From contig JAQGHG010000026.1 in the NCBI GenBank assembly GCA_028288925.1, positions 22,013 to 86,012 on the forward strand: DNA of 64,000 nucleotides, read 5' to 3'. Position 1 is the first letter of the stretch; every line of letters starts with the position of its first letter. A program made the position numbers and the translations under genes. The stretch is from Patescibacteria group bacterium (GTDB lineage: Bacteria; Patescibacteriota; Saccharimonadia; UBA4664). Of this stretch, positions 47,848 to 52,217 are shown one piece after another. Below the pieces are notes generated by a model, which saw only the letters and a program-made list of their open reading frames with translations, did not search any database and was not told the origin of the DNA.

Positions 47848-48702
47848 GTGAACCAGAAATTAGAAAAATACCTAGACGAAGCCTTTAAACCCTACGGCGA
47901 TTTCCCGGCCCGCCAGGACGTCAAGCAAGAACTACTCGGCAACCTCGAGGAAAAGTTTAGCGACCTCAAAGCCCAAGGCAAATCCGACGACGAAGCCTAC
48001 CAGCTCTCCGTCGACTCGGTAGGGGACATCTCGGAAATGATGGAGCATGTGCCGCACGACGACGCTGACGCCACCGCCGCCGCTCCCGCCGGCCGCAATC
48101 TGTCCGGCTCCAACCTCCCCGATTCCGACCTGGCCGGCGCCAACTTGCGCCAGGCCAACCTCAAAGGCTCGGCCCTCAAGCAAACCGACTTTAACGGCGC
48201 CAATCTCGCCGGCGCCAACCTAAGCGGCAGCGATCTCCAGGCCGCCAACTTCGCCGGCGCCAATCTCGCCGGCGCCAAAATGTCCGGCTCTGCGCTCAAA
48301 GGCGTCAATTTCACGGGCGCTGACCTCACCGGAGCCGAGCTCAAGGCTAGCGATTTATCAGGCGCCAACTTCGACAGCGCCAACCTCACAGGTACCAAGC
48401 TCAAAGCCTCAGCGTTTAAGGGCGCGACCTTCAACGGCGCCATCCTAGTAAACACCGAGTTCAGCCGGTCGGACTTAAGCGGTATTACCTTCGACGGGCA
48501 GACCCTCGACGGCGTCATCTTCAACAGCGCCTCGCTCAAGAACACGTCTTTTAAAGGCGCCACCTTGCGCAACGTAATCTTCCACCACACTGCCGCCAAG
48601 AATGCCATCTTCGCCGGCGCCACCATGGACAAGCTCACCTACGCGCTGCTCAAGAGCGGCAAAGCCAACTTAGACGGCGTCACGATACTAGAAACTTTGT
48701 AA
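47848..48702 (+). CDS. Pentapeptide-repeat protein with N-terminal DUF1700-like (PadR-partner) domain
   Basis: Over 25 tandem A(N/D)LxG pentapeptides (ANLAGANLSGSDLQAANFAGANLAGAKMSG...). Confidence 0.8.
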   Translation: MNQKLEKYLDEAFKPYGDFPARQDVKQELLGNLEEKFSDLKAQGKSDDEAYQLSVDSVGDISEMMEHVPHDDADATAAAPAGRNLSGSNLPDSDLAGANLRQANLKGSALKQTDFNGANLAGANLSGSDLQAANFAGANLAGAKMSGSALKGVNFTGADLTGAELKASDLSGANFDSANLTGTKLKASAFKGATFNGAILVNTEFSRSDLSGITFDGQTLDGVIFNSASLKNTSFKGATLRNVIFHHTAAKNAIFAGATMDKLTYALLKSGKANLDGVTILETL

Positions 48703-49162
48703 CGATTTCCTTAGCATCGTTAGGGTCTGAGTATGATTGCAGATAATAGTCAGGGCACTCGTCCATAGAGACGCCCCGGATCATATAAGTCAGCTTGTCC
48801 AGCAGCTGTTCCTGTACTAAACATAAGATCGGGGTAGGATTGAGGCCCAGGTTCGGTTTTAAAATCGCCCTTTCTAGCTCCATGCCCACGCCATGGCTTG
48901 GGTCATTTACTATCGCTATAAAATGAGTGGCCTTATCTACCCATTTGAGGTCCTGCCTCCTAATGTCGATCGCAGTCCTATCGGTCGGCGCTCTTCTACC
49001 GTCTAGCGCGGCGCGCGCAGCCACATGTTCGCTCAAGACTTCAGCACCCCCGGCCGTCAAAAATTGGATAATCTCCAGGGAAAAATCAGAAACCTCCCGT
49101 AACGGCTGGCGCGTTATGGGGCCAGAAAAATACACTTTGACCCCTCCAAAAGGCTCGTTCAT
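48680..49162 (-). CDS. Nucleoside 2-deoxyribosyltransferase-like (NDT/Rcl/LOG-like Rossmann) protein
   Basis: VYFSGPI...THFIAIVNDPSHGVGMELERAI pattern. Confidence 0.5.
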   Translation of the reverse strand: MNEPFGGVKVYFSGPITRQPLREVSDFSLEIIQFLTAGGAEVLSEHVAARAALDGRRAPTDRTAIDIRRQDLKWVDKATHFIAIVNDPSHGVGMELERAILKPNLGLNPTPILCLVQEQLLDKLTYMIRGVSMDECPDYYLQSYSDPNDAKEIVTKFLVS

Positions 49163-49190
49163 GGTTTTATTCTAGCAAATAGCGCGGCTA

Positions 49191-49673
49191 TTAATAGCCA
49201 ATGGGCGGATGGGTATGAGAAGGGAGTTTTAGCAGGCCAAGCTTGTTAATATCCTTGGTGATTCGGTCTAATTCCCCGTCCAGAAGCTCCAGCCCCCGGC
49301 GGTCATGCTCTGCCGTTAGCTGATTCCGGATATGAGCTTCAGTTTTGTCAAAGTCGTTCTTAAATCTAGTATTAATGTCTTTCCAGGCAATCCCCTTGAG
49401 CAGCCGCGCCGCCGCTGGTTCGTAGCCGATGATGCCCTTAAGCAGCAAGAACGAAATACTGGGATACCCTAGATAACCCACCCAGTATGACCCGTTATCA
49501 TTTGAGGTAATAGAGTTACTATCAGGATCGTAGGCCACTTGATAATATTTATTGCCCGATGATGAATATACCTTGGCAGTATTACCGTCAAGCGCGACCC
49601 GCCCGTCGCCAATGGCGCCCAAAGCCTCATAAACCTTAATGATTGGTGGATGCTCCCACTGCATACTTACCAC
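49191..49673 (-). CDS. Hypothetical protein
   Basis: 160 aa, AT-richer, no motif. Confidence 0.3.
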   Translation of the reverse strand: MVSMQWEHPPIIKVYEALGAIGDGRVALDGNTAKVYSSSGNKYYQVAYDPDSNSITSNDNGSYWVGYLGYPSISFLLLKGIIGYEPAAARLLKGIAWKDINTRFKNDFDKTEAHIRNQLTAEHDRRGLELLDGELDRITKDINKLGLLKLPSHTHPPIGY

Positions 49674-49730
49674 TCTACTACAGCCATTCCTTAGTAATAG
49701 GGGCGTTAACCCTCCGGTCGGGCCGGAGGG

Positions 49731-50327: not shown

Positions 50328-51581
50328 CTACAGGCCGATCTGGGCCGGAAGCGTCTTGAGCATAAACTCCTCCGGCTTTTCTGTAAAGATCGTGTGTTTC
50401 CCAATGGGGTGGGCGTAGCCAATTTCAATGAATGCCGAAGCGCCCACATACCCGTCTGGGTTACATACCACGAGCGCGTCAGACCGCTCAATCGACTCCA
50501 AGTGATGACGCTCAAGCTCGAGCGGCGTCATCCCGTCCTCCCCGTGGAATACCACAAACTCTTCACCCGGGTTTTGCGGCTCAATAAAACGCGGGCTTAA
50601 GACCCGTATGCCTTGTTCTTCAAGCTGCTTTTTTACGTCAAGGATGTAATTCAGGTGCTTCCGGAAGCTCCCACTCAACGTAACCGTGCGGAAGACTTGC
50701 CGTGCCCATCCATGGGCCGTATTAGAATCTGAAGGCACGATTGTCCTAATCCCATATTTGCGGCAAATTGCTTCCGCGATGGCGGAGCAGCTGCGCGCGC
50801 CATGCATCCATCTGGGGTCGTGCGGCATCTTTTCCTCAAGCCACGACAAACGGGTCTCATGGAAAATCGCCTCGTTCTTGCGATAGAAGTCTTCAGACCG
50901 GATTAAGTATTTATGATCCCCGTCGGTGAACAAGTGGTTAGCGGCAACGGGGTACCCGGCGAGTCGCATATATGTGAGTTCGCCACCGTTATAGAAAGCG
51001 ACTCGAACGTTATTCTCCAATTCTGGCAGCAGTGAGGTAGCATAACTAACCACCTCGCCGATAGCCGCTCCGGAGGTTTGGCCGTTGATAGTTGGGAACT
51101 TGCCTAGTAGCGTGCCGACACCCAGCCCAATATTGTGGCGTTCAATGGCGTCTTTGCCGTAAACCACCACCAGCTCGGTGGAGCCGCCGCCAATATTTAT
51201 CAGCAACACCGGCTCATTTAGGCTGCATTTATCGAGCAGGGCGGTTTCCAGATAGAAGTTCTCCAAGTCCTGGGAAATAATGTTGAAGTAAAGGCCTGTG
51301 TGGGCAAAAAACTCGTCCACAAACTTAATCCTGGCGTCCCTTTCAAGCTCTCGGAATAGGGCAGTGGCGATGATCCGGATCTGGGCTCCGGGATTTTGTT
51401 CAACGGCGGCCTGGACAAATTGGTACAACTCACCCTTATTAGGCTCGCTCAAGCCCGTGGCCGGGTCAAAATCTTTTTTAAACGGGATACTACATGTGGC
51501 GAGGAGGCGTACATCTTTGTTTTGGCCAATTTTGTTTACTTTGACCGTTGAGGAACCGACATCAATCAGGATCGTATCCAT
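50328..51581 (-). CDS. Ppx/GppA-family phosphatase fused to C-terminal NDT-like domain
   Basis: N-terminal ASKHA MDTILIDVGSSTVKV, Ppx/GppA core. C-terminal about 130 aa ALVVCNPDGYVGASAFIEIGYAHPIGKHTIF NDT-like. ORF-track start at 51626 lies inside a palindrome. Confidence 0.6.
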   Translation of the reverse strand: MDTILIDVGSSTVKVNKIGQNKDVRLLATCSIPFKKDFDPATGLSEPNKGELYQFVQAAVEQNPGAQIRIIATALFRELERDARIKFVDEFFAHTGLYFNIISQDLENFYLETALLDKCSLNEPVLLINIGGGSTELVVVYGKDAIERHNIGLGVGTLLGKFPTINGQTSGAAIGEVVSYATSLLPELENNVRVAFYNGGELTYMRLAGYPVAANHLFTDGDHKYLIRSEDFYRKNEAIFHETRLSWLEEKMPHDPRWMHGARSCSAIAEAICRKYGIRTIVPSDSNTAHGWARQVFRTVTLSGSFRKHLNYILDVKKQLEEQGIRVLSPRFIEPQNPGEEFVVFHGEDGMTPLELERHHLESIERSDALVVCNPDGYVGASAFIEIGYAHPIGKHTIFTEKPEEFMLKTLPAQIGL

Positions 51582-51591
51582 AAACCCTCCA

Positions 51592-51635
51592 TGTGTATAT
51601 ATGTGTAGGATATAATGCATACACATATATACACA
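51592..51635. promoter_or_regulatory. Perfect 16-bp inverted repeat TGTGTATATATGTGTA-N12-TACACATATATACACA with TATAAT in the spacer, in a divergent promoter region
   Basis: Arms at 51592-51607 and 51620-51635. Spacer GGATATAATGCA. Confidence 0.55.
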
Positions 51636-51677
51636 AGCCCCTATTATCGCTAAAATAGCCTCAAATACTCACTTTTT

Positions 51678-52217
51678 ATGATAGTTCATTTCATTGCCTC
51701 TACAAGTAAAATAACCGATGATATAGGGATCTTCCGACGCATCGCTTCATATGTTCAGGAGTATGGTCACAGTTTGGCCTATGACTGGCTGCATGGAGCG
51801 AACAATCCTCAAGACGCGCTCAGCCTACAAAAAGCCCATGAAGCCGCTATCTCAAAATGCGATATCCTCATCGCTGACGTCAGCAGAAACGGCTTTGAGC
51901 TTGGGTATCAAGTGAGCTTAGCCGTTTCCCAGAAGAAGTCCATCCTGCTACTGTATGGTCCGAATCTCGCCGATACGGCGTTCCTAAACGGCTTCGGAAG
52001 TTCTTATATTCGACGGGAGCAATACACCCCGGATAGTCTGCGGGCAGTCGTAAAAAGCTTCCTAGACGAGAACGACATTCCCGCCAAAGACATGCGCTTC
52101 AACTTCTTCATTGACCGGCAAATCTACCAATATCTGCGCTCCACCTCTTTGCACACCGGCAAAACCAAGGCCGAAATACTGAGGGAGTTAGTGCTGCGGG
52201 AGATTGACAACAAATAA
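51678..52217 (+). CDS. Nucleoside 2-deoxyribosyltransferase-like protein
   Basis: CDILIADVSRNGFELGYQVSLAVSQKKSILLLY matches the NDT active-site region pattern. Confidence 0.5.
   Translation: MIVHFIASTSKITDDIGIFRRIASYVQEYGHSLAYDWLHGANNPQDALSLQKAHEAAISKCDILIADVSRNGFELGYQVSLAVSQKKSILLLYGPNLADTAFLNGFGSSYIRREQYTPDSLRAVVKSFLDENDIPAKDMRFNFFIDRQIYQYLRSTSLHTGKTKAEILRELVLREIDNK

Follow-up and report, generated by a model that had tools for sequence, protein, structure and literature searches.

A Saccharimonadia gene cluster built around a Ppx/GppA–NDT fusion points to nucleotide salvage under a candidate repressor with a disabled DNPH1 fold

Bacteria of the candidate phyla radiation (CPR), Saccharibacteria included, reportedly rely on their hosts and have no de novo nucleotide synthesis, which raises the question of what one of them does with the gene cluster studied here. 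Located at 48680-52217 of a 64,000-nucleotide (nt) stretch of Saccharimonadia DNA (the window), the cluster combines a phosphatase-like protein fused to a nucleoside 2-deoxyribosyltransferase (NDT)-like domain, two further NDT-like proteins, a guanylate-kinase-like protein and a protein that the initial annotation left as unknown. A metagenome-assembled genome from soil, recorded as 'Patescibacteria group bacterium', encodes a hypothetical protein, JWN01_1287, with the same sequence as the fusion. The initial annotation hesitated between an expanded nucleoside-salvage toolkit and a nucleotide-depletion or signalling module of anti-phage defence. We lean, with some reserve, towards a lineage-restricted operon for (deoxy)nucleotide salvage and pool maintenance, controlled by a nucleotide-sensing repressor that derives from a pseudoenzyme.

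All five open reading frames of the initial annotation were recovered at the same coordinates and on the same strands. The fusion gene, the guanylate-kinase-like gene (GK), the gene originally left as unknown (UNK) and the first NDT-like gene (NDT1) follow each other on the minus strand with gaps of 30, 66 and 28 nt, respectively, while the start of the third NDT-like gene (NDT3) lies 96 nt from that of the fusion gene, in divergent orientation on the plus strand. The features, in order of position, are as follows.

48680..49162, minus strand: NDT1, the last gene of the operon, a homolog of DNPH1/Rcl-type 2'-deoxynucleoside 5'-phosphate N-hydrolases, 160 amino acids (aa)
49191..49664, minus strand: UNK, a member of PF27709 (UCP014422), 157 aa counted from the ATG
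49704..49736, no strand: hairpin with a GC-rich 14-bp stem, between GK and UNK
49731..50297, minus strand: GK, a guanylate-kinase-like P-loop kinase, 188 aa
50328..51581, minus strand: the fusion gene, 417 aa, two domains
50328..50696, minus strand: C-terminal domain of the fusion, a divergent NDT fold, aa 296-417 plus stop codon
50697..51581, minus strand: N-terminal domain of the fusion, a Ppx/GppA-type ASKHA phosphohydrolase, aa 1-295
51592..51635, no strand: candidate operator, a perfect 16-nt inverted repeat with a 12-nt spacer
51678..52073, plus strand: N-terminal domain of NDT3, aa 1-132, a DNPH1 fold with replaced catalytic residues, proposed to sense a ligand
52074..52217, plus strand: C-terminal tail of NDT3, aa 133-179 plus stop codon, a proposed ribbon-helix-helix (RHH) DNA-binding domain

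As single sequences, all three NDT-like domains score 16-19 bits with Pfam PF05014, for which the cutoff is 28.8. The assignments of the initial annotation stand nonetheless, because family profiles match where the single sequences fall below threshold. A profile of the NDT1 family (40 homologs) finds DNPH1/Rcl in the PDB with E=8e-24 and over the full length, at positions 6-155 of 171. In human DNPH1 numbering, the catalytic residues are Tyr24, Asp80 and Glu104, which are accompanied by Glu55/His56 and by the phosphate-binding Ser98/Ser128 (PMC10603095). At Y24, E55, H56, D80, S98, E104 and S128 the NDT1 of the window reads Y, E, H, D, S, E and T, and its family is similarly conserved: Tyr24 is kept in 33/40 members, Glu55 in 30/40, His56 in 36/40, Asp80 in 34/40, Ser98 in 39/40, Glu104 in 40/40 and Ser128 in 37/40, with Thr in the remaining three. 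By these residues NDT1 looks like a competent deoxynucleoside monophosphate (dNMP) N-hydrolase. It resembles DNPH1/Rcl in its full-length match, its Tyr, Glu-His and Asp, its nucleophile Glu and its phosphate-binding Ser/Thr, and differs in being bacterial, in belonging to an operon and in having about 15 extra residues.

The family profiles also connect the three domains to each other: hhalign pairs the NDT1 family with the N-terminal domain of NDT3 at 98% probability and with the C-terminal domain of the fusion at 90% (E=1.5e-6), Glu aligning on Glu in the latter case. No similarity is detectable among the three by pairwise BLAST, which rules out a recent triplication; the 'triplication' of the initial annotation thus gives way to three NDT-superfamily domains that the profile comparisons confirm as real and anciently diverged.

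The N-terminal domain of the fusion had been called a Ppx/GppA phosphatase, and this call is well founded. Pfam Ppx-GppA (PF02541) scores 37.8 bits against a gathering score of 27, covering part of the profile (positions 52-153 of 285), and a profile of the domain matches Aquifex PPX/GppA with E=1e-8. With an AlphaFold2 (AF2) model of the fusion (pLDDT 84.6, the C-terminal domain at lower confidence than the N-terminal one), Foldseek retrieves Ppx/GppA structures (E=7e-18, TMt 0.67-0.73), followed by NTPDase1. In a profile alignment that includes H. pylori PPX/GppA as well as the E143A mutant, the catalytic Glu proves to be that of the GGGSTE motif and corresponds to fusion E136; both E136 and E107 are invariant in the fusion family. 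Common to this domain and the solved Ppx/GppA proteins (Aquifex 1t6d, H. pylori 6pc0) are a two-lobed ASKHA fold, a DxGS motif, GGGSTE with the catalytic Glu and a second conserved Glu. The domain differs from them in that Asn replaces the Asp before GGGSTE and in that an NDT-fold domain takes the place of C-terminal domains III/IV.

That C-terminal domain, an extra NDT-like domain according to the initial annotation, is more divergent, and it is the hhalign match to the NDT1 family, with the nucleophile Glu aligned, that bears the assignment out. Taken alone it scores 16.7 bits with PF05014 (cutoff 28.8, E=0.0084), its profile finds the CMP N-glycosidase 4jen weakly (E=0.01), and among the fusion homologs listed a precomputed PF05014 match is found in one. 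In the model, its strands and helices alternate; E386, which aligns with the nucleophile Glu, is invariant within GYVGASALIEIG. With the PF05014 family (nucleoside 2-deoxyribosyltransferase, and the CMP N-glycosidases MilB and BlsM) it shares a Rossmann-like core and the nucleophile Glu in a G-x-x-x-E-x-G context; it differs in falling below the Pfam cutoff, in having Thr/His for Tyr/Asp and in being joined to a phosphohydrolase. As for its distribution, which the initial annotation had wished to see checked, the fusion family numbers more than 500 CPR relatives at about 60% identity. One further locus, L017, encodes a stand-alone 195-aa protein (4406-4993) whose match to fusion-family proteins is confined to their C-terminal NDT-fold region (E=3e-6); an NDT3-family gene is situated about 1 kb away. 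The C-terminal domain of the fusion therefore also occurs as a separate gene.

NDT3 was taken by the initial annotation for a third NDT-like protein, and this is half right: the domain is real, but the protein is not an enzyme, the whole catalytic set having gone. A profile of its N-terminal domain matches DNPH1 with E=1.9e-10, and the top 50 PDB neighbours found by Foldseek for its AF2 monomer model (pLDDT 83) are all DNPH1/Rcl (TMt ~0.8, rmsd ~2.6 A). What sets the family apart from DNPH1 enzymes is the replacement of the catalytic Tyr/Asp/Glu and of a phosphate-binding Ser: Y24 is replaced by His in 40/40 members, D80 by Asn in 32/40 (His in the window), E104 by Gln in 39/40 and S128 by Phe in 34/40. 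The NDT3 Gln corresponds to E104Q, the engineered inactive form of human DNPH1 that was used to trap intact substrate (PMC10603095). In addition to these H/N/Q/F residues, NDT3 differs from DNPH1/Rcl, whose fold its N-terminal domain shares, by a C-terminal tail that it has gained. Judged by its residues, NDT3 is a pseudoenzyme that could bind a nucleoside-like ligand and not cleave it, and the loss of the phosphate-binding Ser suggests that this ligand may be something other than a 5'-monophosphate.

The tail, a feature absent from the initial annotation, is the most conserved part of the NDT3 family: the last 45 residues are almost invariant (KDMRFNFFIDR..Y.YLRW..GKTKAEILRELV). By inspection they comprise the alternating polar/hydrophobic stretch RFNFFI and then two helices joined by G-K-T, with a spacing of elements like that of Arc and Mnt. 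In the AF2 monomer model, helices 147-160 and 164-176 are confident. Such features suggest that the tail is probably an RHH DNA-binding domain, a fold to which no profile or structure search gives significant support.

Almost all relatives of the NDT3 gene come from Saccharimonadia, where NDT3-family genes often stand in tandem arrays of 3-5 paralogs (L016 6001-8379, L026 6001-9063, L028 4122-6567, L039 348-3652, L046 3214-6570 and L057 420-2438), in some genomes on two contigs. Within these arrays the tail is near-invariant and the N-terminal domains diverge. A survey of 92 genes that flank NDT3-family genes brought up only mixed housekeeping families (methyltransferases, DedA/VTT, RuvB, NUDIX, HAD), with no single partner. 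Distant relatives of 32-34% identity are encoded on two IMG/VR 'viral' contigs (L154 549-1055, L155 3001-3474).

A role for NDT3 in regulation is indicated by the DNA between the divergent genes, and this evidence is independent of the RHH fold and stronger. The predicted operator, with arms TGTGTATATATGTGTA and TACACATATATACACA, is situated between the ribosome-binding site of the fusion gene and the promoter-like sites of NDT3, and the promoter-like hexamers of NDT3 overlap its right arm. The arm has two copies only in the 64-kb window, a number reached in 0/100 shuffles; a scan for promoters and terminators returned no more sites than in shuffled sequence. In regions upstream of NDT3-family genes, the most enriched k-mers are words from the repeat arm of the window. 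Half-sites of the form TGTGTAT/ATACACA are present in 8/10 intergenic regions between paired NDT3-like and fusion genes as compared to 16/252 controls (p=6e-8), and inverted pairs of them in 4/10 as compared to 3/252 (p=4e-5). L102 (TATACACA-GA-TGTGTATA) and L122 (AAATGTGTATT-GG-AATACACATTT) are among the loci with the motif, though their regulators are only ~25-30% identical to NDT3.

The arrangement of the genes is conserved as well. A provisional conclusion of 'no conserved synteny', drawn from the contexts of the first fusion and UNK homologs, was overturned by the closest relatives, L149 and L153. In L149, UNK, GK and the fusion gene run in one direction with UNK most distal, and an NDT3-like gene followed by a NUDIX gene runs in the other; identity to the window is 69/55/70/50% for UNK/GK/fusion/NDT3, and the contig ends inside UNK. 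In L153 the order is fusion, UNK, NDT1. The divergent pair of an NDT3-like gene and a fusion gene is found in ten loci, namely the window, L149, L041, L044, L048, L098, L102, L115, L122 and L125. Directly downstream of the fusion gene, L041, L048 and L125 encode homologous dNMP-kinase-like P-loop proteins and L044 encodes Ham1 and thymidylate kinase (Tmk), while in L102 and L149 there are NUDIX genes beside the regulator. The recurring theme is a regulator divergent from a fusion gene, then a (d)NMP kinase and, in the vicinity, enzymes of nucleotide house-cleaning. The recurrence of the operon in L149 and L153, together with other (d)NMP kinases, Ham1 and NUDIX in other lineages, argues for the first option of the initial annotation, an expanded salvage toolkit.

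Several further observations concern these loci. In L153 (750-1765), a Y1 transposase gene of IS200/IS605 type on the opposite strand (1153-1587) interrupts the NDT1 homolog, the halves of which match NDT1 residues 4-128 and 128-160. At L149 5175-8801, some 2.4 kb separate the cluster from a gene that encodes an RHS/YD-repeat protein of more than 1500 aa, possibly a contact-dependent toxin. In other CPR lineages, a small XRE-type helix-turn-helix gene occupies the place of the regulator immediately upstream of the fusion gene, either co-directional or divergent (L006 2804-3001, L009 5774-5980, L100 2773-3111, L107 4537-4872 and L110 3911-4078), and it seems that the fusion gene has a dedicated regulator in several lineages.

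The remaining two genes of the operon encode the kinase and UNK. The initial annotation had singled out the kinase for its GMP-binding signature, and its translation does carry TTRPPRPNEVPGVDYEF (TTRxxR..E..G.dY.F motif) along with a GPSGIGKT P-loop. It matches Pfam Guanylate_kin (PF00625) with E=1.5e-20 and solved guanylate kinases with E about 1e-17 to 1e-19; its score of 110.9 bits with NCBIfam TIGR03263 is under the equivalog cutoff of 160.45, and other CPR GK-like proteins score even lower. On the strength of these matches we regard it as a clear guanylate kinase homolog. UNK, left as unknown in the initial annotation, belongs to a recognised family: its CPR homologs number more than 1000, with identities of about 55-60%, and every one is assigned to PF27709 (UCP014422); a comparison with solved structures found no relative. 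The mechanical reading frame (49191-49673) begins at GTG 49673; the start is probably the ATG at 49664. A Paceibacterota contig (L011 1170-7462) has two UNK copies 5 kb apart, one of them divergent from a gene for an HD_3/YfbR-like 5'-deoxynucleotidase; between the copies are genes for an 862-aa protein with matches to the major-vault-protein 'shoulder' domain and for an inositol monophosphatase. Between GK and UNK in the window, the hairpin at 49704-49736 has perfectly complementary arms (CGTTAACCCTCCGG/CCGGAGGGTTAACG) around a 5-nt loop and overlaps the GK stop codon. On the minus strand no T-run follows, and the element may serve in processing, stability or attenuation.

Outside the cluster, a gene for a 284-aa pentapeptide-repeat protein (47848-48702, plus strand), itself preceded by a PadR regulator, converges on NDT1 such that the 3' ends overlap by 23 nt. 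On the other side, in DNA of 61-66% GC, the gene for a 775-aa DEAH/HrpA-HrpB-like helicase has the orientation of NDT3 and starts only 44 nt past it. Next come genes for a Fic protein, which matches PADLOC SoFic with E=6e-19, and, in convergent orientation, for a Doc-like protein that matches PDC-S23 with E=9e-21; the region 52262-57129 may be an acquired toxin/defence islet. The initial annotation described the DNA of the cluster as AT-richer, in good agreement with a GC content of 0.48-0.54 across 49001-52000, lower than both flanks (0.57 before, 0.61-0.66 after). Across the window, GC ranges widely, from 44% to 68%.

From the folds, the conservation of residues, the conserved gene order and the enrichment of the operator motif, all of which we observed, we infer enzymatic activities, substrates, DNA binding by the NDT3 tail, the direction of regulation and a ligand, which can be put together as follows. 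The Ppx/GppA-type phosphohydrolase domain of the fusion would trim phosphates from scavenged nucleotides, and its NDT-fold domain keeps the nucleophile Glu. The DNPH1-type NDT1 would split dNMPs to free base and deoxyribose 5-phosphate, so that the bases could be re-used, and the guanylate-kinase-like nucleoside monophosphate kinase would re-phosphorylate monophosphates. NDT3 would bind a nucleoside-like ligand in its DNPH1-fold domain without cleaving it and, with its tail, the TGTGTAT/ATACACA palindrome over the shared promoter; repression of the operon and of NDT3 itself would last until the ligand altered the affinity of the protein for DNA.

Repressors derived from enzymes have precedents in NrtR, an inactive Nudix domain with a winged helix that controls NAD metabolism, and in B. 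subtilis PurR, with its phosphoribosyltransferase-like domain; NikR and MetJ are RHH repressors with sensor domains. Like proteins of the NrtR/PurR type, NDT3 is a disabled copy of a pathway enzyme joined to a small putative DNA-binding domain, and its gene adjoins and diverges from those of the pathway, a palindrome lying in the promoter that they share. It differs in that its sensor fold is DNPH1/NDT, its DNA-binding fold is a putative one and its genes form tandem arrays of 2-5 paralogs. Our search of the literature found no description of a DNPH1/NDT-fold domain as a regulator and nothing relevant on the fusion family, on UCP014422 or on CPR nucleotide salvage with these genes, and the earlier impression that the cluster matches no named system thus persists.

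A number of observations weigh against the salvage operon with its pseudoenzyme repressor. In the fusion family, the Asp before GGGSTE is replaced by an invariant Asn129, and by hhalign alignment with the NDT1 family the C-terminal domain has Thr/His at the Tyr/Asp positions of NDT enzymes; either domain could thus be non-canonical or regulatory. In the AF2 monomer model of NDT3, the putative strand 139-145 of the tail is a helix (pLDDT ~65). Pfam returns RHH_3 (E=0.026) and SeqA_N (E=0.088) for the tail in 1/40 members each, the tail profile finds SeqA alone in the PDB, at E=1.5, and it scores about 0 bits, no better than shuffles, with Arc, Mnt, CopG and ParD sequences. The source of the operator motif is the window, itself one of the ten paired loci; two others of the ten, L098 and L102, nearly duplicate each other. 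GC content is lower in the paired regions than in the controls (0.31 as compared to 0.38), and across the whole NDT3 family the enrichment of TGTGTAT is modest (13/89 as compared to 14/235, p=0.014). Partners in L115 and L125 keep Glu at the nucleophile position. Finally, an NDT3-like partner accompanies only 5/54 evaluable metagenome fusion loci (L098, L102, L115, L122 and L125), and for the most part fusion and UNK homologs have no other gene of the cluster beside them, their neighbours being unrelated (ribosomal, EF-G, RNA polymerase and Mur ligase genes); it follows that the operon is lineage-restricted.

How do other explanations of the cluster fare? The presence of a Ppx/GppA-type domain next to a guanylate kinase homolog brings to mind homeostasis of guanine nucleotides or of (p)ppGpp/polyphosphate, with the fusion as a GppA/PPX tuning the GTP pool together with GK, and with NDT-fold domains that bind or cleave guanine nucleotides. 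The closest solved relatives of the N-terminal domain are indeed PPX/GppA proteins, including ppGpp-bound H. pylori PPX/GppA, the guanylate kinase comes directly after the fusion in the window and in L149, and guanylate kinase is a (p)ppGpp target in other bacteria. However, the position of the kinase is taken by dNMP-kinase-like proteins in L041, L048 and L125 and by thymidylate kinase in L044, which means that the theme is not guanine-specific. As the fusion family also lacks the C-terminal domains of long PPX/GppA proteins and carries Asn in place of the Asp that precedes GGGSTE, and as no (p)ppGpp synthetase turned up, though no search aimed at one was made, we judge this explanation unlikely. 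We hold similarly low expectations of a role for NDT3 as a pseudoenzyme subunit, in which it would pair with NDT1 or the NDT-fold domain of the fusion, its tail would be a protein-protein motif and some other factor would bind the palindrome. DNPH1/NDT enzymes are oligomers, the tail matches no RHH profile significantly, most NDT3-family genes are not adjacent to a fusion gene, and invariance of the tail even among tandem paralogs would be unusual for the DNA-reading heads of diversified regulators. Yet the tail has the RFNFFI alternation followed by two helices with a G-K-T turn, and both the conserved divergent geometry and the recurrence of the same half-site where the partner is ~25-30% identical fit a cognate DNA-binding protein whose reading head does not vary.

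The second option of the initial annotation, an anti-phage or conflict module, finds little in its favour, and we consider it very improbable. In such a module NDT-fold effectors would deplete or modify nucleotides upon infection, the Ppx-like domain would process a signal, and the helicase, Fic and Doc genes would mark a defence island. The flanking Fic and Doc proteins do match the PADLOC SoFic and PDC-S23 models, the GC content of the region does differ from its flanks, and NDT/SLOG/TIR-like folds are present in defence systems according to the literature. For the five core proteins themselves, however, PADLOC gives no match at E<=0.01, and GK is the only one matched by PHROGs; 2.9 M viral contigs contain no fusion-family relatives, fusion and UNK homologs at about 55-63% identity have housekeeping neighbours (ribosomal, EF-G, RNA polymerase and Mur ligase genes), and helicase, Fic and Doc are not kept beside the cluster in L149, L041, L044 and L048. 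There is equally scant reason to see in the cluster a chance juxtaposition of independent housekeeping genes without functional coupling: while each family occurs mostly alone and in variable contexts, the gene order recurs in L149 and L153 at 50-70% protein identity, the divergent pair is found in ten loci with a shared motif, and intergenic gaps on the one strand are 28-66 nt within the unit.

Returning to the salvage operon, its components may hold more novelty than outlined above, although we offer this only as a tentative, rather doubtful proposition. The fusion, which is conserved in hundreds of CPR genomes, might be a hitherto unrecognised bifunctional enzyme central to CPR nucleotide scavenging that strips phosphates from scavenged (d)NTP/(d)NDP and releases the base in one protein, or else a new nucleoside/nucleotide kinase, and the NDT3 family might form a new class of transcription factor, consisting of a DNPH1 pseudoenzyme sensor and an RHH head that would read TGTGTAT half-sites. 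On this view, the tandem arrays of NDT3 paralogs would let Saccharibacteria epibionts sense different nucleosides and nucleotides derived from their hosts.

How CPR bacteria process scavenged nucleotides and regulate their use is poorly known, and the locus gives a testable handle on both. It draws attention to the fusion, a conserved type of two-domain enzyme of which more than 500 relatives exist and which awaits characterisation, and to a candidate regulator family with a predicted operator. The presence of a bacterial DNPH1-type hydrolase in the operon suggests how deoxynucleotides could be turned back into free bases and sugar phosphate. If NDT3 does act as proposed, the DNPH1-fold pseudoenzyme sensor would constitute a new example of the recruitment of an enzyme as a regulator.

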